Of a DNA stretch of 64,000 nt, positions 3,433-59,274 are shown one piece after another; the stretch's first letter is position 1; each line of letters opens with the position of its first letter. The position numbers and the translations under genes were made by a program. The DNA is taken from sequence record MN850584.1; one strand, written 5' to 3'. This DNA comes from Escherichia phage arall. The notes beneath the pieces are model-generated. The model did no database searches. It worked only from the letters and a program-made list of their open reading frames with translations, and was not told where the DNA came from.

Positions 3433-4443
3433 ATGGCAGAAAAAAGAGATTATACAAAAGCTCCTGCACCCAATCTAAACAGAGCATACAAACTGTTAAT
3501 AGGTACAGCTACTAATACTAAAGAAAAAAGGACAAAAAATTCCTCTTTCAAATCTACAGTAGACTTAGATACTAAACTAGGGGATGCTAAAAAATCAACC
3601 CCTAATTTGTATGTTATTACGGAGCACCAAATATCTTTCACAATAAGAAAAGATAATAATAAAGATCCTAATCAAGCTGAGATAACTATTTATAACCTAA
3701 GCGATGATACTGTTAATTATATTAACAAAGGTATTCGTAACAACTTGGCTGTTGCTTTGGCGGTAGGTTATGAAGGTCAAGAGTTAATTATGATCTTTAA
3801 GGGAACGGTGCAATGGGTGAGTGATACTTTTAACAATACAGACAGACGTACAGTGTTACATTGTCTGGATGGTGGTATTAACATCTCCGAAGCAAGGACA
3901 AGCAGAAGTTATCCGAAAGGTACAAAAGTAAGTAAAGTTGTTAAAGATTTAGTTAAAGATTTAGGTACTACAGAAGGTAATATTCACGTAGACACAGAGA
4001 AAACTTTATCATCTGCAACAGCTATGTGTGGTAACACATCACATTACTTAGAAAGTATCTGTAAAGGTATTGATCATAATGTGTCGATACAAGATGGATC
4101 TGTTTACGTGACACCAAGATCACAAATGTCTAGTGCAAGATGCGCATATATTAGTGCAGAAACAGGTTTAATTGGTAGTCCAGAACCTTTCCACAATGAT
4201 ATTAAACCAACACAAAAAGTAACTAAATCTTCTAAGAAAGCTAAAAAGCCTACAGATGGTGTTAAGTTCAGATGTGAAATGAACGGTGCTATCTTACCAG
4301 AAAAAACTGTTTGGCTCAAGAGTCATAACTATGATGGTGGTTTTAAGGTAGTATCTGTTGTTCATACAGGAGATAGGGAAGGTAAAGACTGGACAACTGA
4401 AGTAGAGTCTGTATCTGTATCTGCAATTATTAAGAAGGGCTAG
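3433..4443 (+). CDS. baseplate hub-like protein (XkdQ/gpD-like by position)
   Basis: 336 aa; AAGGAG RBS; position between tape measure and spike-like gene; no motif confirmed. Confidence 0.35.
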   Translation: MAEKRDYTKAPAPNLNRAYKLLIGTATNTKEKRTKNSSFKSTVDLDTKLGDAKKSTPNLYVITEHQISFTIRKDNNKDPNQAEITIYNLSDDTVNYINKGIRNNLAVALAVGYEGQELIMIFKGTVQWVSDTFNNTDRRTVLHCLDGGINISEARTSRSYPKGTKVSKVVKDLVKDLGTTEGNIHVDTEKTLSSATAMCGNTSHYLESICKGIDHNVSIQDGSVYVTPRSQMSSARCAYISAETGLIGSPEPFHNDIKPTQKVTKSSKKAKKPTDGVKFRCEMNGAILPEKTVWLKSHNYDGGFKVVSVVHTGDREGKDWTTEVESVSVSAIIKKG

Positions 4444-4445
4444 AA

Positions 4446-5183
4446 ATGGATGCTTTAAATTTTGTAACAGCAATCCGTGGATTAATCAACGAGCAAGTTG
4501 CGGAAGTACATACATCTTTACCTGTAAGGGTAATTGGTGTAGATTATGGATCTAAGACAGTAACTTTAGAATCTATTGTAAAAAACACCAGATCTACTGA
4601 AGATGAAATAGATTACCCAACATTCCACGATGTTCCTTTTATGGTAAATGGTGGTGGTACAGGTAGAATTTCATTTCCAATTAAAGCAGGAGATATTGGT
4701 GTTGTTGTCTTTTCAGAAAGAGATCCGTCGAATGCTTTCCAGACAGACGGAGATACAGCCAGCAGCGGAACATTAATTCAACCTTGTGGTTTGTATCCAG
4801 CCTGTTTTATTCCTAAGATAGCAACAGCTACAGATTCTTCTGAAGAAGTAGACTCTGAAAAAGTTGTTATCTCAAATAATAAGCAAACTTACGCTTCGTT
4901 TGATCCTAACGGTAATATATCTGTGTACAACACACAAGGTATGAAAATAGATATGACACCAAACAGTATCGTTCTTACTGATGCAGGAGGAGGAAAACTT
5001 ACACTGCAAGGTGGGACTATGACATATAAAGGTGGTACTGTAAATTTAAACGGTTTAACAATCACACCTGACGGTCGTATGAAAGATAGTGGTGGCATTG
5101 GTTTACACACACATACACACCCTGTACGCGGTGTTGAAACTGGTGGTAGCACTGTTACTTCCGACAAACCAAATGGAGGTTAA
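4446..5183 (+). CDS. baseplate spike / gpV-like protein (candidate)
   Basis: 245 aa; N-terminal segment with GD/G-rich strand pattern (GGGTGRISFPIKAGDIGVVVFSERD) resembling the OB-fold of gpV-type spikes; position. Confidence 0.4.
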   Translation: MDALNFVTAIRGLINEQVAEVHTSLPVRVIGVDYGSKTVTLESIVKNTRSTEDEIDYPTFHDVPFMVNGGGTGRISFPIKAGDIGVVVFSERDPSNAFQTDGDTASSGTLIQPCGLYPACFIPKIATATDSSEEVDSEKVVISNNKQTYASFDPNGNISVYNTQGMKIDMTPNSIVLTDAGGGKLTLQGGTMTYKGGTVNLNGLTITPDGRMKDSGGIGLHTHTHPVRGVETGGSTVTSDKPNGG

Positions 5184-5186
5184 CAG

Positions 5187-5822
5187 ATGGGAATACCATT
5201 TGATTTAAAACTTGATGGTTCTAATGATTTAGTGATGGTGGATGGTGATTTAACACTAACCACAACTAAAAGTGAAATTGCAGCACAGACGCTTGGAATA
5301 ACACTTAGAACTTTCCGTGGAGAATGGTTCCTCAATTCTAATTTTGGGGTTCCATATCTGCAAGAGATTATTGGTGTTGCCAAGAAGAAAGAGATTGTTG
5401 ATCGCATTTTCTTATCAACTATCGCAAGTAATGTTTATATAGATAATATTAATTCCTACACATCCTCTTATGATAGAGATGATAGGTATTACTCAATGAA
5501 CGTTACTGTTACAGTTGGTGAACAAGTTGTTAGTGCTCTATTCAGTACACAGCCGTCTGAAGAATATATCTATCCAGAAGCTGGTGACGATAATGCAGCA
5601 ATCACTTGTGAAGCATTTGAAATTGTTGAATCTGCAAATAGACTCTATCGCTTTATTAACATTGTTGGTCTTCCTAAAGATACTTATTCTACTTGGTGGA
5701 ATGAGTGGTCTAACGAGGCATTGATTGAAAAATACCTTGTTAACGAAGCCAATAAAGGTCTTGCAACCAATTACAACTATGCTATAACAGCAACAATGGG
5801 AGCTACAAATAATAATGGCTGA
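5187..5822 (+). CDS. baseplate wedge protein (XkdS/gp25/gpW-like)
   Basis: 211 aa; N-terminus DGDLTLTT…AAQTLGITLRTFRGEWFLNSNFGVPYLQEIIG matches the XkdS/DUF2634-type pattern as I recall it. Confidence 0.4.
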   Translation: MGIPFDLKLDGSNDLVMVDGDLTLTTTKSEIAAQTLGITLRTFRGEWFLNSNFGVPYLQEIIGVAKKKEIVDRIFLSTIASNVYIDNINSYTSSYDRDDRYYSMNVTVTVGEQVVSALFSTQPSEEYIYPEAGDDNAAITCEAFEIVESANRLYRFINIVGLPKDTYSTWWNEWSNEALIEKYLVNEANKGLATNYNYAITATMGATNNNG

Positions 5823-6288
5823 TTTAACTACAATCAAGGTGTCTGATCTACCTGTAACAACATCTGTTTCAGACACAGATTATTTTGTAACAGATCAATC
5901 AGGCATCACTAAGAAAACATCATTACGTGTTCTTCTTGCGGGTGCTGGTGTTACACGAAATCGTCTTTCTGCAAGGGGTACTGTCACAAATACCCTAGCT
6001 TTAGATATTAGCACGGCAGAGTATTTCTCTGCCACTTTATCTAGTCCAACTTGCAGTATTTCATTTAGTAATGTTCCAGTTACAACTAACATTGTTCAAA
6101 ACTTTACGCTATCCCTACGTCAAGGCAGTGGAGCAAATAAAGTAACGTGGCCTCAATCTGTTAAATGGAGTTTTGGTCGCGCTCCTGTTTTGAGTTATAA
6201 ACAGGGAGCTACAGATATTTTTGAATTTGTTAGTTATGATAATGGAGCTACCTGGATAGGTAGTTTAGTGATGGCAGGAGTGATTTAA
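5815..6288 (+). CDS. hypothetical structural protein
   Basis: 157 aa; start overlaps upstream stop; Thr/Ser-rich. Confidence 0.4.
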   Translation: MADLTTIKVSDLPVTTSVSDTDYFVTDQSGITKKTSLRVLLAGAGVTRNRLSARGTVTNTLALDISTAEYFSATLSSPTCSISFSNVPVTTNIVQNFTLSLRQGSGANKVTWPQSVKWSFGRAPVLSYKQGATDIFEFVSYDNGATWIGSLVMAGVI

Positions 6289-9164
6289 TGTCAAGAATTA
6301 AGCACAGAATTGACAATGTTTTTCAACTGATCGATGGACATATTCAGTTCTTAGATCGTAATACAGGTTTAACTGTAGATCCTACAGTGCAACACTATGT
6401 ATTAAACCCACAAAACGTTCTAGCTAATAACAGACACTTTATAAACTGGACTGCTCAAGAAGGGCAACCAAACGGGGATGCTACAACAGAAGGTCAATCC
6501 GTGCTTATTCTTGGTTGCGCTTATGCATACCTAGCTTCCGGCGATACAAAGTATTTAGACTCTGCTAAAAAATATTGGCAAGCCTATATAGATTACTTCT
6601 TTGGTGGTCAACCTATCCCAGATCCGCCAGCAAAGTATCGCCCTAACTGGATTATTAACGGTAAAGAACCACGTCTTGCACATTATCCTCTTACAGATGA
6701 TGGCTACCCTACACACGGAGGTTTTAAGGGTAGCTTAATGACGTGGACTAACGGTAGAACAGTTATTCCTCATGGTGCTCCACATTGGGGAGAATACCTT
6801 GACAAAGCATGGTTTGCTTTTAATGGTAATCTAGGATGGAACTCTGTAAACGCTACAGTATATGCTGTTAATGCAGATGGTACAACAGATTGGTCTAAGA
6901 AGGGAGATCAATGGGATGTTGATTGGATCATTGATCGTCTAGGACGTAAAGTTGATTGGGATGGAAATATCTTAGAAGAAGGTTTTCCAACATCTCAATA
7001 CGGAACAGTTCAACTAAAAAATACTTCTGTAAATGGTACATATAAATTTAACTACGCGACTTGTAACCCTGTTGAACACGGTGGTTATTTAATGGAGCGT
7101 AACACTATGTGGCATAACAGACCAGTTAACGTTCCGGTAGAAATGGGCTTTCAGGATAATGCGTCAGATGCCGAAACTTGGTGGTGTGATGCTAATTACC
7201 TGATGTACCAAATTACAGGGGAAAGAAAATATTGGCTATGCTGGCAGTCTTCACTGTTAGTGTGTCAAGATTATTCAAACATTGATATGTTTGATAAATT
7301 CTTCCGTAAGTCTACATATGCAACTATTCCGTTTACAGATGGCATCTCTTACGATTATTCGTATCCATCTACAGCAATACCTAAATATTCAAGAGATACT
7401 TTAGGTTATATTGTTATTAGACAAGATGTTGCTGCTCAAACAACATTAGAACAGCAATCCATTTGGTTTAAAGTTGATCAGAAATCTAAGTTACGAGTTC
7501 AGTTCCAAGGTGTAGATGATGCAGGACATGGTATTCTTTTCCGTCCAGAATTGGAGCTAAGTAAGACCAAAGATGAAAATAACACAGTAACTTACCGTTG
7601 TGGCTTACCATTAGGTACAGCTAATATGACAAGCATGGATATTCCATTATCCAGCTTTATGAGAAGTACCCCTCCAAATGGTGGAACATATATTATCGCA
7701 GATCCGCGAATTATTGTTGACTGGGGTGACAATACTGTGGTACAATTTAAGTATGTAACAGGTATTGCTGGAACTAATGATGACCAGATTGTTACTGCAT
7801 CAATGGATACGGATGGTGGTGTCACTGTTGGTTTTTGGTTAACTCCTACATCAAAAGCTAATGTTAAGTCTATTACATATAGAACATATGAGGATGACTT
7901 TAACATGACTATCACGGATGCTCAAGGTTGGAGATGGTGGGCTATGCTGACTAAAACGCAAGGAGCATGGAGTACGAAGACTTTATCAGCTTCTGATTTT
8001 CAGTTAAGTGCTTACCAGCCTAATCATCCAGATACAGATCCTAAACCTTCAGCAATAAATCTGACTGCGGTAGATCAGGTAAATTTAGTTCTGGATACGG
8101 CTCCTGTCAATGGTTTAACAGGAACAATAGATTTCTATTGTATTAACGATGTACCTGAAAGATATTCGTCATCTTCTGGTGATGATTATACAATGTACTT
8201 CCGTATTACTGTACAGGCTTCAAGTCCTCATACTGCTAAGTTAGGTGATTGTACTATTATTGACTATAAGTTAAATAGTCTTAATTACACACCAGGAATA
8301 ATTCCATTCTCTAATATCAGTGACCCAAACACTGCATTATACGATGGATGGCGTGGTATTCCATACCCAGGATACCAGTATCCTTCCTTATACTGTTTCG
8401 CAGGTAGGGATATTGATTGGACACGTTTAAACAACAGTATTGATTTCTTGTATGATGCTCAAATGTGGTTTTATAACACGTTTGATCCTGTGATGCCTGG
8501 GCCTATGGCACAAGCATATGTGTGGGATCGTTGGGATGCAAGAAAATACGGTGAACCTAATACGTTTACAATGAAACACTGGAATGAAAAAGCGTGGGAT
8601 GGTTATGAAGCTCGTGCATTCTACTGTGCTTGTCATGCTGTATACGAACTTGTACAAAGAGGAGAAACACCTCCTGAAAAACTAGTAACTGTTTGTAAAA
8701 ATTGGATCAACTACCTTAAATGGTTCCAAGACAATAATGATGGAAGAACACCAACTATCTTTAACCCAGATGGTACAGTTCTTGCGCCTATAGATGACTT
8801 TACTAGTCATATGTCTGCACTGTTTATGGCTGGTTGTTCAATCATGGGCTTGGCAGGTTATGATTCACAAATTCCAAACATTGGTATTGTAGCAGACAGA
8901 TGTTTTGATCTGATTCAGCAAAACTATATTGTGCTCTCCCCTAACCATCCAATGAATGGTTGCTGGAGTGTTGCACCGCGTCCAGATTCAGATAACGGAA
9001 TGTTCTTTGGTTTCCATGCTGGAGAACTATTACGTGGTTTTGGTTTATATGCTTTATATCGTAAACTAAATCCTCAAAACGCCTTACCAATTTTAGACAA
9101 TAGTAACATACCGACACTAACTGTTCTAACTATGAATGATATTAGTGTTGATGTAACCAAATAA
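6288..9164 (+). CDS. large baseplate-associated protein, possible glycosidase-like receptor-binding protein
   Basis: 958 aa; ATGA overlap with upstream gene; N-terminal region (ILGCAYAYLASGDTKYLDSAKKYWQAY) reminiscent of alpha/alpha-toroid glycosidases; Trp/Tyr-rich. Confidence 0.4.
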   Translation: MSRIKHRIDNVFQLIDGHIQFLDRNTGLTVDPTVQHYVLNPQNVLANNRHFINWTAQEGQPNGDATTEGQSVLILGCAYAYLASGDTKYLDSAKKYWQAYIDYFFGGQPIPDPPAKYRPNWIINGKEPRLAHYPLTDDGYPTHGGFKGSLMTWTNGRTVIPHGAPHWGEYLDKAWFAFNGNLGWNSVNATVYAVNADGTTDWSKKGDQWDVDWIIDRLGRKVDWDGNILEEGFPTSQYGTVQLKNTSVNGTYKFNYATCNPVEHGGYLMERNTMWHNRPVNVPVEMGFQDNASDAETWWCDANYLMYQITGERKYWLCWQSSLLVCQDYSNIDMFDKFFRKSTYATIPFTDGISYDYSYPSTAIPKYSRDTLGYIVIRQDVAAQTTLEQQSIWFKVDQKSKLRVQFQGVDDAGHGILFRPELELSKTKDENNTVTYRCGLPLGTANMTSMDIPLSSFMRSTPPNGGTYIIADPRIIVDWGDNTVVQFKYVTGIAGTNDDQIVTASMDTDGGVTVGFWLTPTSKANVKSITYRTYEDDFNMTITDAQGWRWWAMLTKTQGAWSTKTLSASDFQLSAYQPNHPDTDPKPSAINLTAVDQVNLVLDTAPVNGLTGTIDFYCINDVPERYSSSSGDDYTMYFRITVQASSPHTAKLGDCTIIDYKLNSLNYTPGIIPFSNISDPNTALYDGWRGIPYPGYQYPSLYCFAGRDIDWTRLNNSIDFLYDAQMWFYNTFDPVMPGPMAQAYVWDRWDARKYGEPNTFTMKHWNEKAWDGYEARAFYCACHAVYELVQRGETPPEKLVTVCKNWINYLKWFQDNNDGRTPTIFNPDGTVLAPIDDFTSHMSALFMAGCSIMGLAGYDSQIPNIGIVADRCFDLIQQNYIVLSPNHPMNGCWSVAPRPDSDNGMFFGFHAGELLRGFGLYALYRKLNPQNALPILDNSNIPTLTVLTMNDISVDVTK

Positions 9165-9172
9165 GGAAAATA

Positions 9173-11248
9173 ATGAAACAGGCTATTTTTACTGTAACTC
9201 GAAATACGAGAGTAAATGCCAGTTCATTCAGCTATAAGACCGTCGATGGAACGGCGGTCGCTGGTAGAGATTATGTAGCTAAACAGGGAACAGTAACGTT
9301 CCCTTCTGATGCAGATTCTGCTACTGTAGTGGTTGATGTATATGAACGTCCGGCAAACTCTTTAGATCTTTATTTTACTCTTGAGATTACTAGCATAAGT
9401 CAAAATAACATGATGATCAACGAAGAAATTCGTTGTGTTATTACGACTGATCAATCGAATACAACCCCGCTAACTTGGCCTGTTGTGAAGTCTAGAATGT
9501 TTGATCCTAAGTTTTGGACAATAGATTCTCAAGCAACAGAAAGTTGTTCTATTATCTCTAATGGTGATTCTTTCACAGCAAGAATGGTTAATAGGACAGT
9601 GGCTGGTCTTGCTGGGATTATTTGGTCAACTTACGATAAATATGATCACAAAGGATTAGGCTACCAAGAACATTCTGACTTAAGTAAAGAGAAACTTTGG
9701 TTTAAAATGGAACTTAGTCAAGGTGTTCCTGGATTAAAAGAAGAAAAATTAATACCATCCTTAACAGTGACACTGAAGGATGAAACAGTTCATTATGTAT
9801 CTCTAAACTTTTATGCAGAAGAAGTTTCAGAAGATGGTAAGACAGCAACAATCAAACTAGATTTCTCAAATTTAAAATCTGGGCCAGAAAATGATATTGT
9901 TGTTGACACTACACAGATAGATAATATGTTCTTCTCCTTGATCTCCACAAGGTATCAAGAAATTGAAGATATTATTCCTGTAGACAATGTGGATCTTTCC
10001 TTTAAGTTTACCATACTGGAGCCTGATACTGGTTACAGTATGATGAATATGGGTAATTTAAATGTTCCAGCACACACCATAAGAATGTGTACATCTTATG
10101 ATGATATGTATAACCTGACCCCAGAGCGAGTTATTTCTAACACCTACAGATTAGGTTATAGGGATATGATTAACCATTATAATGGTATGTCACACTATTA
10201 TCAGTTTAGTTGGGATGCTGGTTCTAATAAATGGGTTTTGAATAGAACAGAATATTTAAACCCAGCAACAGAAGCATGGTTTGATAATTTCCACGCTAAT
10301 GCAAAAGCTATGGGCTACACAGTAATGAACTCCTTAAGTTTTGAACTTATGAGTACAGTGTGTCCTGTAGAATGGGTTCAACATACTTGGAATGATGATC
10401 TGGCTGCTACAGGTTATGAGCCACCAAGTTATGTTTTATCTCCTTCAATTGATGAAGGGATGAATTATTTACAAGGTGTAATAAATAAGATAGCTTCTAT
10501 ATCCGCTGCCAATGATCTTCCTGTTATTATTCAGGTTGGTGAACCGTGGTGGTGGTATAACACAGCTACCAATCTACCGTGTATTTATGATTATACAACC
10601 AAAGTTGCATTTAATAATGAAACTGGATTATATGCACAAGATGTTGGTACAGTTAAGAATTATAAAACTGGTACACCATATGATGAATATTATGCATTCC
10701 TATCTAAAACATTAGGACTGCGTGTTGCTAAATTTGCAACAGATACTAGATTAGCATATCCTGGGGCTAAAGTTACATTATTACCATTTGTGCCATCCAT
10801 TTTAGGTAACGGTATGATGGAGTTTGTTAACTTCCCTAAAGATTATTATATCCCAGAAAACTTTGACTTTTATTGTTCAGAATGTTATGACTGGTTGTTG
10901 GAAGGTCAGATGGAAAGATCTTTCGACGCTATTAAAATACCTAATGAGCAACTAGGTTTTAGTTATGATAAGATACATTATCTTGCAGGGTTTGTTCCAG
11001 ATGCAACTCTAGCACCATTATATGGCTTTGATCCTGAATCAGACTACAGAACATATTTGTGGAAAATGATTATAGGTAATATTGTATTGAATGACCAGAA
11101 GTTTGTTGGTTTGTATCAATACATATGGGCTTATCCACAAATTATGGCAGATTCATTAACTGTTCTTAATTCAAAATCCCAAGTTTTTTATATGGGTAAC
11201 GTACCTCTGAATGTCTTTTTACAAGATACAGTATATGTTTCTTCTTAA
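9173..11248 (+). CDS. structural protein with N-terminal Calx-beta-like domain
   Basis: 691 aa; FSYKTVDGTAVAGRDYVAKQGTVTFPSDADSATVVVDV matches the Calx-beta signature (DGTA..G.DY … g.v.F). Confidence 0.45.
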   Translation: MKQAIFTVTRNTRVNASSFSYKTVDGTAVAGRDYVAKQGTVTFPSDADSATVVVDVYERPANSLDLYFTLEITSISQNNMMINEEIRCVITTDQSNTTPLTWPVVKSRMFDPKFWTIDSQATESCSIISNGDSFTARMVNRTVAGLAGIIWSTYDKYDHKGLGYQEHSDLSKEKLWFKMELSQGVPGLKEEKLIPSLTVTLKDETVHYVSLNFYAEEVSEDGKTATIKLDFSNLKSGPENDIVVDTTQIDNMFFSLISTRYQEIEDIIPVDNVDLSFKFTILEPDTGYSMMNMGNLNVPAHTIRMCTSYDDMYNLTPERVISNTYRLGYRDMINHYNGMSHYYQFSWDAGSNKWVLNRTEYLNPATEAWFDNFHANAKAMGYTVMNSLSFELMSTVCPVEWVQHTWNDDLAATGYEPPSYVLSPSIDEGMNYLQGVINKIASISAANDLPVIIQVGEPWWWYNTATNLPCIYDYTTKVAFNNETGLYAQDVGTVKNYKTGTPYDEYYAFLSKTLGLRVAKFATDTRLAYPGAKVTLLPFVPSILGNGMMEFVNFPKDYYIPENFDFYCSECYDWLLEGQMERSFDAIKIPNEQLGFSYDKIHYLAGFVPDATLAPLYGFDPESDYRTYLWKMIIGNIVLNDQKFVGLYQYIWAYPQIMADSLTVLNSKSQVFYMGNVPLNVFLQDTVYVSS

Positions 11249-11259
11249 GGATCTCTAGT

Positions 11260-11505
11260 ATGAGAAAATTTTTAATAGGTATGTTTTGTACATATCCTGA
11301 TAATAAAGTCAGTTCTACTAAAGTTTGGAATGCTATTGGTATGATTGTTATGTCCAGTATGTTTATTTATTTGGGAATTGATAAAGAAATTCCTGAATGG
11401 ATGGGCTGGGCTTTTGTTTTTATGATCACACCATCCAGACTAATGAAGAATTTAATAGATTTACGTTGGGGCAGATCACCTGCCCCTGATAAGGAGGATA
11501 ACTAA
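11260..11505 (+). CDS. small membrane protein
   Basis: 81 aa; hydrophobic segment IGMIVMSSMFIYLGI, second WMGWAFVFMITP. Confidence 0.4.
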   Translation: MRKFLIGMFCTYPDNKVSSTKVWNAIGMIVMSSMFIYLGIDKEIPEWMGWAFVFMITPSRLMKNLIDLRWGRSPAPDKEDN

Positions 11506-12992
11506 TGGCAGATTATGGTTTAACAGATGCTGGTTTTGTCATTCCAACGTTTGATGATATTCTAAATAATTATATGACAGCATTGAAAAACACTTTCGGT
11601 GCAGATACAGCTACATCTGAAGATACTGTCTTTGGTCAACTGTTTCGTATTATTGCATATACAGATTACACCCTTTGGGAAGGTATGCAAGGTGTTTACA
11701 ATACCCAAACCTTAGATGGTGCAGAAGGTATTTACCTTGATGAAATTTTCTCTAAAAGGGGTTTTTATCGTAAAGCTGCTTCTGCTGGTAGTGGTTATGC
11801 TTATGTTAAATCTAACAATAAGGCAGCTTGGACTTATGAGCTAAGTACAGATGTTTATTTTAACGCCGATAACGATTTGACATATTATGTCAGTGCACCA
11901 ACAATGTTGAATGCTAAGATTGGAGCATATACCATTTCTAAAGCAAACGCAACAGCTTCTGGTGAAACTTCTATTACTTTCTACATTCAAAGTGCTATTG
12001 ATGGTGGTCTTAACAGTAAAACACTAAGTCCTAGCAATACAAACTTTATTTTAGATCTCACGAATTTCATTAAAGCTAACGTATCAACAACAGATCGTGC
12101 TTTAGTATGGAATGATGCTAGTAATGTTTACATGGGTTATAATCCAGAAGATAATGTTAACCCAATAGGTCTAGTAACACCAGTGAAATTTTATGCATCT
12201 ATTGCAATAGGTACAAAATGGAGTGAAATTCCAGTTACGTGTTCAGACGTTGGTTATAATCCAGTAGGTACAGAAAGTATCACAGGTATTTCTTCAACGT
12301 TTACAGGCTTTTTAGATACAGGTAACTTCTATCCATTCTCTCCAGGTACAGATGTTGAAACAGATGCAGAATTCCGTTCTCGTTTCAATGATAATATGGA
12401 TGAAGCTAATGCTGCTACTCGTGCTGCTATTGTTAAAGCTCTGCTACTGACAGATGGTGTGACAAAGGTTAAGATTTATGATAACCCTACATTACATGAT
12501 CAGGAACATGCTCCAGCTATGACATTCCAGACTATTGTGTATGGTGGTACAGCAGAAGAAGTTGCACAGGTTATTTATAATACTAAGCCTATTAACACCC
12601 TAACCTATGGTACAACAGCAATTACTATCGTAACAGAAGATGGTGGTCAAGAAGTAATTCGTTTTTCTCCTGGTGACAATGCTGAATATTCACTTAAACT
12701 AGTATATCAAACTGGCAATGGTAGTGTGTTAAGTACAACAGAAAGAGAAAATATTGTTTCTGCTCTTTCAAATCTACAGGCTTATTTTGAGTTAGGGTCA
12801 ACAGTAACTAACGATCAGATAAAAGGTGTAATTTATTCTGCACTTGCGTTCGGACGCTTGACTTCTCTCCGTGTTTATGTTAAACTTAATACTGAGGATG
12901 ACAGTAAATATAATGAGGGAGATATCACTCCAGCGTACAATGTTGTACCATCCTTTGACCTTGATAATATTTCCTACGAGTACGGAGTCTAA
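11505..12992 (+). CDS. baseplate J-like wedge protein (by position)
   Basis: 495 aa; ATGA overlap with upstream gene; precedes a gpI/XkdU-like gene and the tail fiber. Confidence 0.35.
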   Translation: MADYGLTDAGFVIPTFDDILNNYMTALKNTFGADTATSEDTVFGQLFRIIAYTDYTLWEGMQGVYNTQTLDGAEGIYLDEIFSKRGFYRKAASAGSGYAYVKSNNKAAWTYELSTDVYFNADNDLTYYVSAPTMLNAKIGAYTISKANATASGETSITFYIQSAIDGGLNSKTLSPSNTNFILDLTNFIKANVSTTDRALVWNDASNVYMGYNPEDNVNPIGLVTPVKFYASIAIGTKWSEIPVTCSDVGYNPVGTESITGISSTFTGFLDTGNFYPFSPGTDVETDAEFRSRFNDNMDEANAATRAAIVKALLLTDGVTKVKIYDNPTLHDQEHAPAMTFQTIVYGGTAEEVAQVIYNTKPINTLTYGTTAITIVTEDGGQEVIRFSPGDNAEYSLKLVYQTGNGSVLSTTERENIVSALSNLQAYFELGSTVTNDQIKGVIYSALAFGRLTSLRVYVKLNTEDDSKYNEGDITPAYNVVPSFDLDNISYEYGV

Positions 12993-39917: not shown

Positions 39918-40769
39918 TTAAACAAACATATCTAAATAATTTGTAGTAATAAATGCTCCATCTGCTTCCAGATTAACATAACCCGTGGTATTAGCAGTTA
40001 AGAAATCCAGATCGAAGGACTCTTTAACACCCCGTACCTCAACACGAGAGATATCGAATACAGGTAGTGTAACAGCCTCTTCGTGCAATACCGTACCTTT
40101 GTAGGTTGCCTTAATGATAAACTTGATATTACCTGTTCCAGCATCATATAAAACACTTTCAAACCCTTTGAGAGTATATTTATCACCAGAAGTGAAGTGC
40201 AAAGTTGCTTTGTTTACAGTACGTTTCTTACGAGGAGTTCCTTTCACACATTTATGATCACTACGTTTTTTGTATTTAGGAATGAATACAAACGATACAC
40301 TCTCAAGAAAGGTATCAACATCAAGGATTTTAATATCCTCTGTTGCAGCAAATTTTGAAGTCGTTGCATCAAAATGCTTTTCCCTGCGATCATACATAAA
40401 GATATCAAACCGATCTTCTAAATCAAACAAATTATGTATTTTAATTTCAGAATGCTTGCGCATTGCAGCAACCTTGAACTCTTCAAAACGTGGGTGTTCT
40501 ACAAGTTCTTCAAGTTTTACACCAAAGATAGTATATTGCTTCGAAGTCTTTTCTGGTGTTGGCATTACAGAAGCATAGTCCCCGATTGCGCTCTTAAAGC
40601 AAAATTGTTCTTGACCTGTATTTTTACCAACGAATTTACAGTATTCGTCATCGTGCATACTTTCCTTGGTAGTACCAACAAACTCAAAACCATCTTTATT
40701 CTTCTCAAGGATTTCTTGATTAAAGATCCAACCTTCCAGGCGATATACTTTACCAACTTCTAGTTTCAT
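39918..40769 (-). CDS. hypothetical protein
   Basis: 283 aa; GGAGAAACAG upstream. Confidence 0.45.
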   Translation of the reverse strand: MKLEVGKVYRLEGWIFNQEILEKNKDGFEFVGTTKESMHDDEYCKFVGKNTGQEQFCFKSAIGDYASVMPTPEKTSKQYTIFGVKLEELVEHPRFEEFKVAAMRKHSEIKIHNLFDLEDRFDIFMYDRREKHFDATTSKFAATEDIKILDVDTFLESVSFVFIPKYKKRSDHKCVKGTPRKKRTVNKATLHFTSGDKYTLKGFESVLYDAGTGNIKFIIKATYKGTVLHEEAVTLPVFDISRVEVRGVKESFDLDFLTANTTGYVNLEADGAFITTNYLDMFV

Positions 40770-40804
40770 CTGTTTCTCCTTCTTATTTAATCTGTATTAA
40801 ATTA

Positions 40805-41395
40805 TTAACGACGACGTGAGCTACTAAAACTACGTTTCGACGAAGAATAACTTTTCGAAGACTTACTATAAGAGCTAATAGGGCTTGAGTAAGACTTACG
40901 AGCAGAGTAATCACTATTCACTTTTGTTGTTGACGGGCGTGAATACGTTTGTACACTTTGCTGCTTAATTGTGTTTTGTTTAGTGGTTGTATATGTATTT
41001 CCTTGTTTATCATAAAAACTATGCTTTTGTGTTGTATATGCTTTACTGTTAGTTGTAGGAGCAGCGTTGTTATTAATAATTGTTGTGCTGCTACCACCAT
41101 CTCTATAACCGCCACCGCCACTATTACCACTCAACATATGACCAAGAAGCATACCTGTAGCAAACTCACCTACACCAGACGAACCACTGCCGCCTCCTTG
41201 CACAACAACTGTTGAAGGTTGTGCAGGTGCTGCTTGAACAACTTGAGGTGCAGGCTGGTTTACATATTGTTCATCTACCATCTGATTTGGTGTTTGTTGG
41301 TAACGTTGATTTTGTACATTTTCAGAATCATCACAACCTACCAGCAATGCACTACCTAAAACAACTGCAACAATAAAAGATTTAATGTTTTTCAT
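40805..41395 (-). CDS. lipoprotein with low-complexity Ser/Tyr/Lys-rich tail
   Basis: 196 aa from ATG at 41395 (GAGAGGG RBS); signal peptide with lipobox LVGC (MKNIKSFIVAVVLGSALLVGC); C-terminus YSSPISSYSKSSKSYSSSKRSFSSSRRR. Confidence 0.55.
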   Translation of the reverse strand: MKNIKSFIVAVVLGSALLVGCDDSENVQNQRYQQTPNQMVDEQYVNQPAPQVVQAAPAQPSTVVVQGGGSGSSGVGEFATGMLLGHMLSGNSGGGGYRDGGSSTTIINNNAAPTTNSKAYTTQKHSFYDKQGNTYTTTKQNTIKQQSVQTYSRPSTTKVNSDYSARKSYSSPISSYSKSSKSYSSSKRSFSSSRRR

Positions 41396-41588
41396 TTGTA
41401 ACCCTCTCATTTAAAGTCTCAACACAATTTTTAAAATCCCTAGAGAAACAATACATCTGTTCTCCGTTCCTGTTGATAGTAATTGTATGGTTATCAATAT
41501 ATGTTGTCAAGATAAAAATCAAACAAAACAACCCTAGAGCAAAACAAATATTTTCAAACAGAATCCAAAGAACACGTAAAACCACCAT
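41382..41588 (-). CDS. small membrane protein (candidate)
   Basis: 68 aa; GAGGTGA RBS; one hydrophobic helix (FALGLFCLIFILTTY); overlaps lipoprotein start by 14 nt. Confidence 0.3.
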   Translation of the reverse strand: MVVLRVLWILFENICFALGLFCLIFILTTYIDNHTITINRNGEQMYCFSRDFKNCVETLNERVTNEKH

Positions 41589-41599
41589 CAGATCACCTC

Positions 41600-41623
41600 A
41601 ACAAAGCCCCCCGAAGGGGCTTA
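41600..41623 (-). terminator. terminator-like hairpin after terC
   Basis: AAGCCCC-TTCGG-GGGGCTT on - strand; weak T-tract. Confidence 0.4.
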
Positions 41624-41628
41624 ATGAA

Positions 41629-42606
41629 TTAAGCAACAGTCTGGTCTTCTTTTTCAGGGAAGATTAAACTTGCAAGAACACCCAGCCCAAGAGTACCTAA
41701 CACAATATACATACTGATCGTCGGGTCAATGTGTGCTGGCAGGAAACTCATTTTTGCGTGCAGAGTTTCTGCAAACGGATGATACATCAGTTTTACACCA
41801 ACAAATACCAGGACTACGATAACTGCTTTCTCCAGATGAACCAAATACTTCAGTGCAACACTAAGAACAAAGAACAGAGCACGTAAACCTAAGATTGCAC
41901 AGAGCATCGAAGAGAACACCAGCAGAGGTTCTTGTGTCACTGCAATTACTGCTGGAACAGAGTCTACTGCAAAGATTACGTCAACCATTTCCATTACAAA
42001 CACACAAACCAGAGCCGGAGTTGCTACACGAACACCATTTTTTATTGTGAAGAACTTCTCACCATTCATCTGATCAGATACAGGGAACAGCTTACGAACA
42101 ATGCGAGTAGCCCAGTGTTTAGAGTAATCAACTTCTGCATCATCATCCCCAGCGAATACCATTTTAGCCGCACAGAAAAGGATGACAGCACCGAAGAAGA
42201 TATTAACATACCAGCCCAAACTCAACAAGTAAGTACCTACTGCTACAAACACACCTCGGAAGACAATCGCACCTGCAATACCCCAAAGTAGAATTTTGTG
42301 CTGCAAGTGTGTGCTTTTAATACCAAAACTTGCGAAGACTGCCACAAATACTACTAAGTTATCTACAGAAAGAGATTTCTCCAACACATACCCACTCAAG
42401 AACAAGCTCGCAAAATCAGCACCGTGTTGGAAGTATACAAAACCATAGTAGGCTAATGATACCCCAATCCAGAAAATTGACCAGCCAATTGCAGATTTAA
42501 ATGAAATTTCTTTGTTTTCTCTGTGTCCAAAGAAGTCAATACAAATCGACAAGACTAAAATACCCACTAAAACAACCACATCAATAATTGGGAAACCCAG
42601 TTGCAT
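41629..42606 (-). CDS. terC: TerC-family integral membrane protein
   Basis: 325 aa; multiple TM helices; hallmark YVLEKSLSVDNLVVFVAVF (E-x-SLSVDN); AGGAGA RBS. Confidence 0.7.
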   Translation of the reverse strand: MQLGFPIIDVVVLVGILVLSICIDFFGHRENKEISFKSAIGWSIFWIGVSLAYYGFVYFQHGADFASLFLSGYVLEKSLSVDNLVVFVAVFASFGIKSTHLQHKILLWGIAGAIVFRGVFVAVGTYLLSLGWYVNIFFGAVILFCAAKMVFAGDDDAEVDYSKHWATRIVRKLFPVSDQMNGEKFFTIKNGVRVATPALVCVFVMEMVDVIFAVDSVPAVIAVTQEPLLVFSSMLCAILGLRALFFVLSVALKYLVHLEKAVIVVLVFVGVKLMYHPFAETLHAKMSFLPAHIDPTISMYIVLGTLGLGVLASLIFPEKEDQTVA

Positions 42607-42683
42607 TCTTTTCTCCTCTTTAATGCGGAGGACAATCCTCCGCTCTATGTCTTATACTATAAACTGTTTTTAAAGAAAGTCAA

Positions 42684-42932
42684 CTAGTTCAGTTCTGTAA
42701 TTTTAAGTTTATCTTCTTTGTTAATGATAGGGAAAGCTACAGCATCACCTACGTCATCAATAAAGCAAATAGCAAGACCACCTTCCACTTTGCTAATCTG
42801 ACCATTAAAGGCGTGATACGGGGCAGGAACTTGATCTCCATCTTCAAGGAGAATAGCCTCGTAAACCTTGCCGATAGTACAATCACGAGTGTTTCTAAAT
42901 TTTTCAAGCACTTCAACATTTACTTTACGCAT
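42684..42932 (-). CDS. hypothetical protein
   Basis: 82 aa ORF with GAGAGGA RBS. Confidence 0.4.
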   Translation of the reverse strand: MRKVNVEVLEKFRNTRDCTIGKVYEAILLEDGDQVPAPYHAFNGQISKVEGGLAICFIDDVGDAVAFPIINKEDKLKITELN

Positions 42933-42946
42933 ATAAAAATCCTCTC

Positions 42947-43153
42947 TTATTTGTTAGATTGAAAGATACCACGGAGTACCGCAAGAATGAACGTCACACA
43001 GACTACACTCCAAAACGTTACAGGAACATGATGCCAGTCTAAGCCGATAATGTCAATCATATAGTTGTATGCTAAAAGCAGTAGCCAACTAGGGATTAAC
43101 ACAATCAAAAACACAACAATAAAACAACCTAATACTGCTAAAACACCTGCCAT
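42947..43153 (-). CDS. small two-TM membrane protein
   Basis: 68 aa; two hydrophobic helices; GGAGAAAG RBS. Confidence 0.4.
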   Translation of the reverse strand: MAGVLAVLGCFIVVFLIVLIPSWLLLLAYNYMIDIIGLDWHHVPVTFWSVVCVTFILAVLRGIFQSNK

Positions 43154-43162
43154 ACTTTCTCC

Positions 43163-43879
43163 TTATTTCAGTTTGTAAACAATTACATTTAAACCTTTGT
43201 TTACTAGAGTTTCTTCGATCATAAGTTTTACAATATTCCAAGAACCTCCAGCCAAACCACAACCAAGCATTGGTAAACCTACAATTTTACCGCCTGAAGA
43301 TACAACATCGTCTCCCATACTATCTAACGCATTGTAGATAGCTTCATAATTCAGGTCACGCTTACCTTCCTCACGACGACTATAACCATATTGTCCATAT
43401 AAATTATAAATTGTCAAATTGTTTTCTGTATACTTAGTAAACGTACCTAATTTTTTATAATCACCACGTTTAGTGGCACAATCTGCTTTAAACGCACCAG
43501 GCCACTTGCTTTTAATTTTTGGTGCAATACCACTACCCATAGTGCAAAAACAGTTACAGCAGTGTGCTATAGCGTCTATATCGCCTCTCTCGGCTGCTGC
43601 TAAAAGATCACCGTATACCTCAATGATACCTGCTAGATAACTTGTTACAATTTCATCTTCCCAGTACATTTGCTCTACACCACCGATCAGTGCAAAGTTT
43701 TGTGTAAGGCGATCATCAATATAGTTAAGACCTGAAACATACACAGCATATTCATCCTGTGCTGTAATACCTTGTACACGAATTCTTAAGACACCATCTT
43801 TATCTGTTGCTACACGCCCAAAATCTTTTTCTGTAATATTGGTGATAGGATCTCCGAAAGTCATTACTTTATTAGACAT
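43163..43879 (-). CDS. macro-domain protein (TARG1/Poa1p/DarG-like) with N-terminal extension
   Basis: 238 aa from ATG at 43879 (longer ORF would overlap upstream gene by 125 nt); AIAHCCNCFCTMGSGIA and VGLPMLGCGLAGGSWNIV parallel the two signature blocks of TARG1-type macro domains. Confidence 0.5.
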   Translation of the reverse strand: MSNKVMTFGDPITNITEKDFGRVATDKDGVLRIRVQGITAQDEYAVYVSGLNYIDDRLTQNFALIGGVEQMYWEDEIVTSYLAGIIEVYGDLLAAAERGDIDAIAHCCNCFCTMGSGIAPKIKSKWPGAFKADCATKRGDYKKLGTFTKYTENNLTIYNLYGQYGYSRREEGKRDLNYEAIYNALDSMGDDVVSSGGKIVGLPMLGCGLAGGSWNIVKLMIEETLVNKGLNVIVYKLK

Positions 43880-44729
43880 AATAATCCCCTTTAACATTAG
43901 ATTTGTTGATAATGTTGCTTTCAAAAAATTGACGTAGGAAATCAAAGTTCTCTTTATATTTTTCAATGTTATTGTAGCCTTCTGCAAGGCAACCAAAGAA
44001 CAGTTGTTCTACATAATACAAAGGAAGCTGTGAAAGTGCAATTTTAAAATCAACTTCGCTTTGACTCATTAGATACTTAATAGGACGAACCAAACATTTA
44101 GCATCAGTTTCTTGCTTAATCATTTTAATAAAAGCTGCCAGGTTATTGATATAGTTGAAGTTAAGTGCAGCTTCGGTATTGGCTTCTGTACCTTCATACT
44201 TTGCAAAGTACAGGAAAAACGTATCGTTTTCAACACCTTCTTTGTCTAAAATTTCAATAAGTTTTTCTTCGTGCGTTCCTGTAATATTAACATCATCAAT
44301 GAAAATCAGAGTTTTATTACCCCAGAAATCACGATTGATAGAGAAAGTGTCACCATCGATCAAAGCCTTACGATCTTCTTTGCTAAGAAATCCATAATCA
44401 TTGATATAGCTCACTTTACGATGAACGATATCCCACTCCACTGCTTTACCTCCTTTGATAGAGATTAGGTAGTTGAGGTGATCTACAAAATGTTCAGATA
44501 ACACTGTAGCTGCATTTTTCACATAGTTATATGGAGATGGAATAACAACAAAACTTTCATTTACCAGTCGTTCTTCATACTTGGAAAAGAAACTTTCAGC
44601 CAGAATGCGTCCCATTCTTTTTGCTGCTTGGTTACTACCAAACTTTAGTTTGGAATAATCTGCAATGTTAAATTTTGCTTCCTTCAGGTTAGTAAAAGTA
44701 TTAGCAAAATGTTGAATTTGATTACGCAT
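43872..44729 (-). CDS. phosphoribosyltransferase-like protein (type I PRT fold candidate)
   Basis: 285 aa; TLIFIDDVNITGTHEE resembles the PRPP-binding loop (hhhhDDhxxTGxT) of PRTases/PRPP synthetases; 8-nt overlap with HAD gene. Confidence 0.35.
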   Translation of the reverse strand: MRNQIQHFANTFTNLKEAKFNIADYSKLKFGSNQAAKRMGRILAESFFSKYEERLVNESFVVIPSPYNYVKNAATVLSEHFVDHLNYLISIKGGKAVEWDIVHRKVSYINDYGFLSKEDRKALIDGDTFSINRDFWGNKTLIFIDDVNITGTHEEKLIEILDKEGVENDTFFLYFAKYEGTEANTEAALNFNYINNLAAFIKMIKQETDAKCLVRPIKYLMSQSEVDFKIALSQLPLYYVEQLFFGCLAEGYNNIEKYKENFDFLRQFFESNIINKSNVKGDYYV

Positions 44730-45378
44730 TAATAAGTTCCTCTTTTTTAAGTTTAGCCAACAAGTCTTCTGGATTAATAATATGACAGAACTTCATCCCT
44801 ATGTCAACAGCTTTTCCATCATAAATCAAACTATCCCCAACGTGTAAAATCTCCTCTGGTGCGAGATCAAACGTTACCATTTCATCAAAAGAGAGTTTAA
44901 AAAACCTAGGATCTGGTTTACACAAGCAAAACTCATCAGAAAAATGCATAAAGTCAAATGGTAATTTTGTCAAGCCAGAATATACAGCTAAGAAACTACC
45001 AGGTACAAAATTGGTATTGCTTTTAATACTCAAAGAATAGGTTGAACTTAGCTCTTCCAACTTCTTGCAAAGTTCAGGGTTTAATATTGGAGGATGTTTT
45101 ATAAACATTGCTAAACAGTCTCTTTTTAACCCATCTACTTTATCAAGATCAATGTTCAAATGAGCAGAAAGTGTTTCCCAAGCATTTCTAGATGTTCCAC
45201 AAATGCCTTTTTCTGCTCTTAAATCCAGGAGAGTTTTTACTTCTTTATATACGGTAGCTGCTTCTACCTCAGAACAAGAGGCATACTCGGCAATAACCTT
45301 GTTGCGTTCTTCTGCATACAAAGGATTAGCAGTAATAAGAGTATTCCATACATCAAAAGAAATATGCTTAACAGTCAT
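44722..45378 (-). CDS. HAD-superfamily hydrolase (phosphatase candidate)
   Basis: 218 aa from ATG at 45378 (GGAGG RBS); motif I-like SFDVWNTLI and motif IV HVGDSLIYDG. Confidence 0.5.
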   Translation of the reverse strand: MTVKHISFDVWNTLITANPLYAEERNKVIAEYASCSEVEAATVYKEVKTLLDLRAEKGICGTSRNAWETLSAHLNIDLDKVDGLKRDCLAMFIKHPPILNPELCKKLEELSSTYSLSIKSNTNFVPGSFLAVYSGLTKLPFDFMHFSDEFCLCKPDPRFFKLSFDEMVTFDLAPEEILHVGDSLIYDGKAVDIGMKFCHIINPEDLLAKLKKEELINA

Positions 45379-45380
45379 TT

Positions 45381-45536
45381 TTAATCCTCCGTCCAAAAGA
45401 ATATCATCTGCTTAATTTTATTGATCTCTTGATGTAGTAACTTTCCAGCATGTGATTGATCTTTAATATTGACAGCAAGAATTTCAAGCTCCGTTAGTTT
45501 TTCTTGGATAGCTTTATATTCATCATCTGTAAGCAT
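45381..45536 (-). CDS. small coiled-coil protein (below ORF-track size cutoff)
   Basis: 51 aa; AAAGGGGA RBS; stop overlaps HAD start (ATGA-type coupling). Confidence 0.3.
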   Translation of the reverse strand: MLTDDEYKAIQEKLTELEILAVNIKDQSHAGKLLHQEINKIKQMIFFWTED

Positions 45537-45547
45537 TTTCTTCCCCT

Positions 45548-45739
45548 TTAGAATGGTAATCTTTGTATGTCACTTATCCCCACACCAAGAAGTCTAGCAA
45601 TATCCTTATCTAAAAGCAACTCTTTTTGTTCTAAAATGTTAATCAGATCTCCTAATACTTCTTTAATGTCACGATCATTTTTAGCAACGTGACCACCTGC
45701 GGTATCAACTTTATCTTTAAAAACAAAATAATGATCCAT
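45548..45739 (-). CDS. hypothetical protein
   Basis: 63 aa from internal ATG (MDHYFVF) with GGAGGG RBS; the longer start lies inside the terminator hairpin. Confidence 0.35.
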   Translation of the reverse strand: MDHYFVFKDKVDTAGGHVAKNDRDIKEVLGDLINILEQKELLLDKDIARLLGVGISDIQRLPF

Positions 45740-45749
45740 AATACCCTCC

Positions 45750-45780
45750 ATATAAATAAAGGAGGCTTTCGCCTCCTTTT
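45750..45780 (-). terminator. rho-independent terminator after AAA ATPase gene
   Basis: AAAGGAGGC-GAAA-GCCTCCTTT hairpin followed by ATTTATAT on - strand. Confidence 0.55.
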
Positions 45781-45785
45781 ATCAC

Positions 45786-46946: not shown

Positions 46947-46966
46947 AGTTTTCTCCTCTATTTAAT

Positions 46967-47437
46967 TTAGTCAGATTCCCAAATGTTGTCTTTCTTAACC
47001 CACATTCGTTGATTATCTGAACCTCTATAACGTTTCGTTGTTGGTTGATTCATATCATACTTACCATCTATCACTATGTCAACCAGTTTTTTAATTTTCT
47101 CTGGAATTTCTTCAAAAAGATATCCTGTATATAAGACAATATCTTTTTTGTTTCCAAAACAATCTCTTACCTTCTCAAGAACATACTCTACAGTGTCAAT
47201 GTTCTCTTTGTCAAGAGGTTCACCACCTAAAACTGTTAATCCTTTAATGAAAGGTCGAGATAAATCTTCCAAGATAAGATCTAATGTTTCAGCAGTGAAC
47301 TCTTGTCCGTAGTTATACGACCAGGCTTTCTGGTTAAAGCAGCCACGGCAACCGTGGCTACAACCGCTCACCCACAAAGAGCATCTTACACCGTCACCGT
47401 TGAGCATGTCAACAGGTTCATATCCGGCGTAATTCAA
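46967..47437 (-). CDS. nrdG: anaerobic ribonucleotide reductase activating protein
   Basis: 156 aa; radical-SAM cluster motif CSHGCRGC (CxxxCxxC); overlaps nrdD stop. Confidence 0.75.
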   Translation of the reverse strand: MNYAGYEPVDMLNGDGVRCSLWVSGCSHGCRGCFNQKAWSYNYGQEFTAETLDLILEDLSRPFIKGLTVLGGEPLDKENIDTVEYVLEKVRDCFGNKKDIVLYTGYLFEEIPEKIKKLVDIVIDGKYDMNQPTTKRYRGSDNQRMWVKKDNIWESD

Positions 47438-50002: not shown

Positions 50003-50011
50003 TAATCCTCC

Positions 50012-50044
50012 GTGGAAAATAAAAGCCAGCTTAATGCTGGCTTT
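50012..50044 (-). terminator. rho-independent terminator upstream of nrdD
   Basis: AAAGCCAGC-ATTAA-GCTGGCTTT hairpin followed by TATTTTCC on - strand. Confidence 0.55.
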
Positions 50045-50091
50045 AGGGTGGATCTTTATTTTAAATCTTTTTCGTAAGATTGTCCTTGATC

Positions 50092-51042: not shown

Positions 51043-51059
51043 TATGTTCTCCTTCTAAA

Positions 51060-51494: not shown

Positions 51495-51506
51495 TCTATT
51501 CTCCTC

Positions 51507-52327: not shown

Positions 52328-52337
52328 TTTAACCCCC

Positions 52338-55112: not shown

Positions 55113-55113
55113 T

Positions 55114-55590: not shown

Positions 55591-55598
55591 ATTTCCCC

Positions 55599-56114: not shown

Positions 56115-56135
56115 TATATTTTCCTTATTGGTTTG

Positions 56136-57580: not shown

Positions 57581-57581
57581 T

Positions 57582-59271: not shown

Positions 59272-59274
59272 AAA

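Follow-up and report, generated by a model that had tools for sequence, protein, structure and literature searches.

A phi92 gp142-type baseplate-region protein with a Calx-beta fold and a TIM barrel: a probable recognition module for the N4 glycan receptor

Introduction

Within the 64,000-nucleotide stretch of DNA analyzed here (the window), an open reading frame at 9173..11248 (+ strand) encodes a protein that opens with a Calx-beta domain in the midst of baseplate genes, which raises the question of what such a domain does at this place and which part of the protein is directed at the host. The ORF list and the translation define a gene of 691 codons that starts with ATG and specifies a 691-aa, three-domain protein of the phi92 gp142 type.

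The gene, its locus and its relatives

The gene is preceded by an AGGA ribosome-binding site (9164..9167, +), read from the sequence 5 nt 5' of the ATG and overlapping the stop codon of the upstream gene; phi92 gene 142 is annotated with the same motif. The upstream gene (6288..9164, +) encodes a 958-aa phi92 gp141-type protein that matches the tail protein family phrog_2871 and gave no match in searches of Pfam, PDB sequences or NCBIfam. It is the last of a series that also includes the hub, the central spike, a gp25-like wedge and a 157-aa fiber-like protein. On the 3' side of the gp142-type gene lie genes for an 81-aa protein, a gp6-like wedge and a gp7-like wedge, followed by a short tail fiber with its chaperone and then by tailspikes.

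The gp142-type gene shares 100% nucleotide identity with those of Escherichia phages EmilieFrey (Bas61), Paula, ESCO32 and PATM, and 55 records contain it at 95% identity or more. Paula is classified in the Stephanstirmvirinae, genus Justusliebigvirus, and its copy is annotated as the phi92 gp142 ortholog; the window phage is a Justusliebigvirus, that is, a phi92-like E. coli myovirus. phi92 gp142 (YP_009012474) and its orthologs in Justusliebigvirus, Phapecoctavirus and Vequintavirus (rV5 gp034) represent the same gene at the same locus, flanked in phi92 by gp141-type and gp144/gp145-type baseplate genes as in the window. They possess the same three Pfam domains as the window protein, and across the N-terminal 110 aa its identity is 99% with phi92, 68% with phAPEC8 and 36% with rV5. 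The gene is a known member of a described family. Because it is identical to published phage genes, its domains are in Pfam and a role has been proposed in the literature, both its identity and its probable role were already known. Nevertheless, its public labels conflict, and include "lateral tail fiber protein", "capsid and scaffold", "adaptator protein" (in ESCO32), "non-contractile tail sheath", "baseplate protein with EPS depolymerase activity" and "hypothetical protein".

Domain architecture and comparison with phage N4

A structural model of the protein consists of a beta-sandwich (aa 1-100), a second beta-sandwich (approximately aa 104-295) and a (beta/alpha)8 barrel (approximately aa 299-665). 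The first corresponds to the Calx-beta domain (9173..9472, +; Pfam match at aa 4-91), considered below. The second corresponds to the NCTSP_N domain (aa 109-290; 9497..10042, +), which was recognized by Pfam PF23844 at 75.6 bits and by a profile alignment to aa 45-129 of N4 gp65. The third is a TIM barrel (aa 299-660; 10067..11152, +) recognized by the Pfam family TIM-barrel_NCTSP, PF23845 (275.5 bits, E 7.9e-82), and homologous to N4 gp65 aa 348-416 together with N4 gp64 aa 109-410. PF23844 and PF23845 were both recovered above their gathering cut-offs and in order, and with the homology to the solved N4 proteins they place the protein in this family, which takes its name from the "non-contractile tail sheath protein" of podovirus N4. 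The roughly 590 residues that the first-pass annotation had left unassigned are accounted for by these two domains. Its proposal of an adhesin or enzyme holds in spirit, in that the protein appears to be glycan-directed, but the module responsible would be the C-terminal TIM barrel with its N4 gp65/gp64 homology and not the Calx-beta domain.

In N4, gp65 (the major, receptor-binding subunit) and gp64 (the minor subunit) form the non-contractile tail sheath (PDB 9lc0, 9yf4, 9yf5), and their gp64:gp65 heterodimer is known from the N4 tail paper, where both are described as structural sheath subunits that hold the tail plug. Both share NCTSP_N and TIM barrel homology with the gp142-type protein, and all of the candidate active-site residues discussed below are conserved between the two systems, as is a GMSHY motif. 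However, the N4 barrel is divided between two chains: gp65 aa 374-416 cover positions 4-46 of the barrel profile, including the DD pair and GMSHY, while gp64 aa 109-407 cover positions 60-347. The alignments suggest that the heterodimer completes a single barrel in trans, with strands 1-2 contributed by gp65 and strands 3-8 by gp64, an arrangement that we did not find stated in the N4 tail paper. In the gp142-type protein, by contrast, the barrel is a single chain preceded by the Calx-beta domain.

The window protein ends after the barrel, whereas N4 gp65 has approximately 970 further residues, with which it encircles the podovirus tail and retains the plug. The window protein has nothing that corresponds to gp65 residues ~420-1382, and hence to the D9-D10 region that holds the plug in the six-fold sheath, and the identical region of Paula has annotated contractile sheath and tube genes of its own, as befits a myovirus. 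The absence of the C-terminal part of gp65 and the presence of a separate contractile sheath indicate that the gp142-type protein, although it belongs to the NCTSP Pfam families, is not a tail sheath.

Proposed link to the N4 glycan receptor

In the BASEL study, N4 gp64 was reported to be homologous to the conserved "lateral tail fiber" of Vequintavirinae and phi92-like phages, the shared domain was called a poly-GlcNAc deacetylase on the basis of Phyre2, and the wecB dependence of EmilieFrey (Bas61) was shown (PMC8594841). Sellner et al. found that N4, Vequintavirinae and phi92-like phages require wecB and nfrB but not wecA, from which it follows that the target is a new glycan, the N4 glycan receptor (NGR), and not ECA (PMC8669472). 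N4 and phi92-like phages therefore both depend on the NGR pathway. The 2025 extension of BASEL described Bas60-62 (Justusliebigvirus) as bypassing the O-antigen by targeting NGR. A 2026 preprint assigned NGR binding in these myoviruses to the phi92 gp142-type protein, and its annotation-free classifier picked a perfectly conserved k-mer, GMSHY, as a predictor of NGR use; the criterion given was a gp65-like segment of 59-76 aa with GMSHY in a tail protein of Vequintavirus, Justusliebigvirus or Enquatrovirus (10.64898/2026.04.02.716166).

The window protein fits this description: GMSHY occurs at aa 338-342 (10184..10198, +), just past the second barrel strand, aa 269-344 align to gp65 340-416, and the genus is Justusliebigvirus. 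Among 45 homologs, reaching down to ~30% identity, G338 and S340 are invariant while M339 and Y342 are conserved in at least 90%. Furthermore, identical copies of the gene occur in phages whose dependence on wecB/nfrB has been measured. The N4 papers, on the other hand, lean towards the gp66 appendages for NGR binding and towards gp65 for binding of the NfrA protein, so that the module shared with gp65 and gp64 could recognize something other than the glycan. A cryo-EM paper on Vequintavirinae fibers (RBPseg) does not mention the gp142-type protein.

We consider it probable that the Justusliebigvirus gp142 ortholog is a three-domain NGR-recognition module at the baseplate periphery, in which the C-terminal unit binds the glycan and possibly cleaves it, while the Calx-beta domain serves for docking. 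The protein would be globular and attached at the periphery of the contractile-tail baseplate, its position and copy number there being inferred. Its ligand would be a conserved enterobacterial exopolysaccharide that NfrB builds from UDP-ManNAc supplied by WecB and that leaves the cell via NfrA. Function would reside in the NCTSP_N beta-sandwich together with the (beta/alpha)8 barrel, a unit that has its counterpart on the N4 tail in the N-terminal part of gp65 plus gp64. NGR is predicted to bind where the carboxylates D310, D311, E391, E457, D473, E570 and D573 and the tryptophans W459-461 and W574 line the C-terminal face of the barrel. Cleavage of the NGR chain by the barrel, if it occurs, would let the virion work its way down through the O-antigen layer to the terminal receptor in the LPS core. 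The Calx-beta domain would dock the module on the baseplate or space it from it, without canonical calcium binding.

The 3' junction and a possible adaptor role

The gene ends at a cassette junction (11229..11255, +), identified by blastn against a 99%-identical locus (L003), by the layout of phi92 and by counts in phage records: most relatives carry a cassette of approximately 2.15 kb that the window does not have. Homology with L003 ends 20 nt 5' of the stop codon of the window gene and resumes 4 nt before the next gene. The 2.15-kb insert of L003 encodes a different C-terminal tail that is 28 aa longer, giving a protein of 719 aa in total, a 541-aa beta-helix tailspike and a 49-aa ORF. phi92 similarly has the 719-aa form, followed by the endosialidase gp143. 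The first ~50 residues are common to gp143 and the beta-helix spike of L003, after which the two diverge. Thus, phi92 and the other cassette records differ from the 691-aa window form in having a different, longer C-terminal tail and a tailspike gene directly downstream; 80 phage records contain the cassette and 23 have the short, window-type junction.

These features bear on the alternative that the protein is a non-catalytic structural block at the baseplate periphery, which would hold fibers or tailspikes and in which the barrel would be a degenerate enzyme fold. The "adaptator protein" label of ESCO32, the 28-aa longer tail found beside a swappable tailspike gene in the 80 cassette records, the N-terminal ~50 aa conserved between the phi92 endosialidase and an otherwise unrelated beta-helix spike, and the role of N4 gp64/gp65 as sheath subunits that hold the tail plug would all fit such a function. 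However, adjacent stretches of DNA are expected to co-occur, so that the co-occurrence of tail and spike is not proof that the one docks the other, and the window version lacks both and yet retains the whole barrel. A purely structural role would also account neither for the invariance, in different hosts and virion types, of some eight acidic residues and a Trp cluster at the strand ends nor for the link of the gp142-type gene to the NGR phenotype. This alternative is accordingly judged unlikely.

As an observation in its own right, the presence of the 28-aa tail next to a swappable tailspike gene offers a testable lead for spike docking, and is in keeping with the "adaptor" annotation.

Conserved barrel residues and possible catalysis

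Among the 45 homologs, the invariant residues include H301, D310, D311, E391, Q403, Q454, E457, D473, N553, D565 and E570, together with the W459/W461 pair, W630 and W652; W460, D573 and W574 are near-invariant. TIM-barrel active sites lie just past the barrel strands, and in the model several of these carboxylates follow predicted strands: D310 and D311 come after strand 303-308, E391 after 383-389 and E457 after 452-456, while strand 567-570 ends with E570. E457 and E570 fall on strands 4/6 or 5/7, depending on how the barrel of the model is numbered. Three short motifs stand out from the conserved columns and the model strands. The first, SYDD (aa 308-311; 10094..10105, +), contains D310 and D311, both invariant, where the first barrel strand reaches its C-terminal end; the pair are candidate active-site or sugar-binding residues, and the counterpart of the motif in N4 gp65 is FDDGYN. 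The second, GEPWWW (aa 456-461; 10538..10555, +), has the invariant Glu457 where strand 452-456 ends, with a Trp platform directly after it, and is a candidate catalytic acid or sugar-stacking site, with the counterpart QIGEPWWW in N4 gp64. The third, SECYDW (aa 569-574; 10877..10894, +), includes the invariant Glu570 and Tyr572 and the near-invariant Asp573 and Trp574 at the end of strand 567-570, offers a second candidate carboxylate and corresponds to IEDYDW in N4 gp64. The carboxylates D310, D311, E391, E457 and E570 are conserved in N4 gp65/gp64 as well. This invariance spans homologs of Acinetobacter, of E. coli phages and among metagenomic Dit-fused proteins, for which a common receptor is improbable, and so argues for a catalytic or core sugar-handling function and not for a specificity pocket.

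In comparisons of the modeled fold, the nearest non-phage match of the barrel is the C-terminal glycoside-hydrolase (GH153) domain of PgaB/BpsB (PDB 6au1, 4f9d), with 8% identity, and barrels of GH42, GH29, GH5 and GH164 score almost equally well. Comparison of the 45-sequence family profile with E. coli PgaB by hhalign revealed no relation at the sequence level (probability 0.15%). Given the lack of a sequence link to PgaB, membership in GH153 is not claimed, and this assignment was rejected.

The BASEL and NGR papers use a label under which the protein would instead be a glycan deacetylase tailspike, whose C-terminal domain would strip N- or O-acetyl groups off the receptor glycan in the manner of the G7C tailspike acting on O-antigen. 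CE4 deacetylases were absent from the top fold matches of the barrel. Classification as a CE4 polysaccharide deacetylase was rejected, as neither the (beta/alpha)7 fold with its Asp-His-His metal site nor the Pfam family Polysacc_deac_1 was recovered. Because the fold similarity is to the hydrolase domain of PgaB, the published term was probably taken from the name of the PgaB entry. Deacetylation is thus quite improbable, and the model makes it most likely that the label was misattributed.

Within the preferred reading of an NGR-recognition module, fold and conservation give about an even chance that the barrel also cleaves NGR, and does so as a glycoside hydrolase rather than a deacetylase. 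A more far-reaching version, less likely than not, is that the NCTSP barrel is an active NGR hydrolase that founds a new GH family, that the Calx-beta domain is a portable docking module shared with cellulase-bearing Erwinia N4-like phages and that "deacetylase" is wrong.

The Calx-beta domain and calcium

The N-terminal assignment of the first-pass annotation was borne out, in that the ORF lies exactly where it had been placed and the peptide quoted as the Calx-beta signature occupies residues 19-56. A profile search, set beforehand as the check, recovered PF03160 at aa 4-91 with 38.7 bits against a gathering cut-off of 27 (E 1.2e-9), and precomputed Pfam results revealed the domain in the orthologs P0001-P0009 as well. 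The modeled beta-sandwich can be superposed on CBD1, and a phmmer search of PDB sequences matched the Ca-binding domains of Drosophila CALX and NCX1. A phmmer search with the N-terminal 103 aa retrieved 11,450 proteins at E<=0.001 from a library of 1.84 billion, and the best 150 of these, ranked by summed score, are all giant multi-repeat Calx-beta proteins, a result that confirms the family and does not help with the question of anchoring. The single NCBIfam match was a sub-threshold one to a Na/Ca exchanger.

The Pfam match opens at profile position 24 of 119, so that the protein begins inside the domain and the first strand is absent. An alternative start further 5' that would add strand A was dismissed, since the upstream gene has its stop codon in this frame at 9162-9164 and leaves no room for one, and since the longer forms in the databases (719 and 717 aa) owe their difference to the C-terminus and not to the N-terminus.

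With the CBD1/CBD2 domains of NCX1 and Drosophila CALX the gp142-type domain has in common the fold and the family motif DGTA..G.DY, as seen in the HMMER alignment of VVVDVYERPANSLDLYF with CALX FRIEVIDDDVFEEDECF, but it lacks both the strand A and the acidic Ca2+ cluster that they possess. Ligand positions were mapped in a MAFFT alignment of the gp142-type protein, five orthologs, the Erwinia phage domain and what we take to be the NCX1 CBD1 sequence, the numbering of which agreed with the known ligand positions. Of the NCX1 CBD1 ligands mapped, only D421, part of the family-wide DY motif, survives. E385 belongs to the missing strand A, and the EF-loop residues D446/D447/E451/E454 are replaced by E/R/S/L (the acidic cluster DDD..E..E reads YER..S..L), with Q/T/P/D, H/K, S/T/R and R, basic residues included, at the same four positions in the orthologs. 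Past the last strand, TTDQS stands opposite the NCX1 sequence DDD (D498-D500) and provides at most one acidic residue, in a region where the alignment is unreliable. The acidic ligand set of the NCX/CALX CBD1 type was accordingly not found in the MAFFT and HMMER alignments, and the loss of the cluster and the absence of strand A mean that the canonical Ca2+ site is absent. The N-terminal Calx-beta fold is real but, judged from these alignments, without canonical calcium binding, and presumably resembles the non-Ca2+-binding Calx-beta domain of integrin beta4.

A calcium-dependent adhesin, in which this domain would bind calcium and mediate attachment to the host surface, is very improbable: the family match is genuine, many Calx-beta repeats occur in large bacterial surface proteins, generally identified as adhesins, but strand A with its E385 is missing, the EF-loop ligands are replaced by E/R/S/L and, in orthologs, by basic residues, the D498-D500 region contributes little by way of acidic residues (in so far as it can be aligned), and the domain lies at the extreme N-terminus, the slot of anchoring domains in homologs.

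Calx-beta as a probable docking or spacer module

The unit formed by NCTSP_N and the barrel behaves as a mobile module that is paired with different flanking domains across its homologs. In Acinetobacter, proteins of ~620 aa consist of this unit without an extra domain. E. coli homologs of 870 aa have DUF7941 at the N-terminus, a domain with matches to PHROG "virion structural protein" families, and homolog P0015 begins with a gp25-like baseplate wedge domain (phrog_120, E 3e-25, and phrog_4233), the same two families that are matched by the gp25-like gene of the window. Homologs P0106-P0120 have a C-terminal DUF2460, known from the Rhodobacter gene transfer agent as its distal tail protein (PDB 6tba).

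When 50,697 phage records were searched by tblastn, the N-terminal 110 aa turned up in only two contexts: gp142 orthologs, with identities of at least 98% in Justusliebigvirus, 68% in Phapecoctavirus and 36% in Vequintavirus, and 13 Erwinia phage records. In gp07 of Erwinia phage phiEaP8 (Schitoviridae), a truncated Calx-beta domain likewise lies at the extreme N-terminus (aa 4-86, profile positions 24-111) with 34% identity to the window domain, and is followed, as in the window protein, by a glycan-active catalytic domain. Unlike the window protein, however, the catalytic domain is a GH48 cellulase and not an NCTSP barrel, and the phage is an N4-like podovirus. In the one Erwinia record inspected, gp07 occupies the position syntenic with N4 gp64 and adjoins a GH5 cellulase at the position of gp65.

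The extreme N-terminus of phage receptor-binding proteins is usually virion-proximal. Because the partner domains of the homologs serve integration into the virion and the Calx-beta domain occupies the same slot, we infer from architecture that it is most likely a docking or spacer module placed before glycan-active tail enzymes.

Implications

For the gp142-type protein the calcium hypothesis can be dropped. The change of label from deacetylase to a glycoside-hydrolase-like barrel of the PgaB GH153 type alters the choice of assay for action on NGR, and D310/D311, E391, E457, E570 and GMSHY are now named as residues for mutagenesis. The fusion partners reveal how virions of different kinds carry the NCTSP module, knowledge that can help in engineering the host range of NGR-targeting phages that bypass the O-antigen. 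If the barrel does represent a new GH family, then the same activity would serve myoviruses in a single chain anchored by Calx-beta, siphovirus- or GTA-like particles in a fusion to Dit, and N4 in trans.

The tailspike cassette and apparent genome mosaicism

Most relatives of the window carry a 2.15-kb cassette at the 3' end of the gp142-type gene that is absent from the window itself; the junction lies at 11229-11255 in the window, and the corresponding regions are 8057-10207 in its 99%-identical relative L003 and 5150-8021 in phi92. The cassette supplies a C-terminal tail on the gp142-type protein that is 28 aa longer, together with an accessory tailspike, which is either endosialidase gp143 (phi92) or a 541-aa beta-helix protein, and these two tailspikes have approximately 50 N-terminal aa in common. 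The cassette junction was found in 80 phage records and the short junction in 23. The longer tail of the gp142-type protein may serve as the docking site for the accessory tailspike.

The accessory tailspikes of relatives begin with a conserved segment, MSTTITNLPETSKVN.SDYLVLDQ.DKTVKSTVSNFL, and the 157-aa gp140-type protein (window 5815-6288) has a similar N-terminus, MADLTTIKVSDLPVTTSVSDTDYFVTDQSGITKKTSLRVLL. An attachment motif may be common to the gp140-type protein and these tailspikes.

While the gp142-type gene of the window is 100% identical to those of EmilieFrey and Paula, the best identity of window 40000-60000 to any phage record is 98.5% (VEcB, phiWec187). The window appears to represent a mosaic Justusliebigvirus genome that matches no single record identically. 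Several records, including MG065639, MG065645, MG065656 and MG065689, are named 'Campylobacter phage' and bear the host label Campylobacter jejuni. These records are approximately 98% identical to the window's gp142-type gene, from an E. coli Justusliebigvirus, and have the same genome size of approximately 146 kb, and their organism and host labels look doubtful.

Barrel and Calx-beta domains in N4-like phages

Whereas the barrel of the window's gp142-type protein is a single chain, the TIM-barrel_NCTSP profile is split over two proteins in phage N4 (NC_008720), gp65 (8044-12192, minus strand) and gp64 (6758-8011, minus strand). Profile positions 4-46, which cover the first two strands with the DD pair and GMSHY, match gp65 aa 374-416; positions 60-347 match gp64 aa 109-407. 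Because of this division, the gp64:gp65 sheath heterodimer may complete one barrel in trans, as judged from the profile matches.

In the N4-like podovirus phiEaP8 of Erwinia (NC_049510), two genes (3804-5987 and 6001-8409) occupy the gp65- and gp64-syntenic positions; the gp65 position encodes Ig repeats with a GH5 cellulase and the gp64 position encodes Calx-beta with a GH48 cellulase. This Calx-beta domain has the same truncated N-terminal form as that of the window, at 34% identity.

Fusion partners of the module

Homologs of the NCTSP_N and barrel module have diverse partners. In P0015 (740 aa, from a metagenomic 19-kb contig), the fusion partner is a gp25-like baseplate wedge domain (phrog_120, E 3e-25), in the 870-aa E. 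coli proteins P0011-13 the module is joined to DUF7941, matching 'virion structural protein' PHROG families, and in P0106-P0120 it occurs with a C-terminal distal tail protein (DUF2460, RcGTA Dit). Based on the wedge-domain, DUF7941 and DUF2460 fusions, it was concluded that a single NCTSP_N and barrel module is mounted on different virion types.
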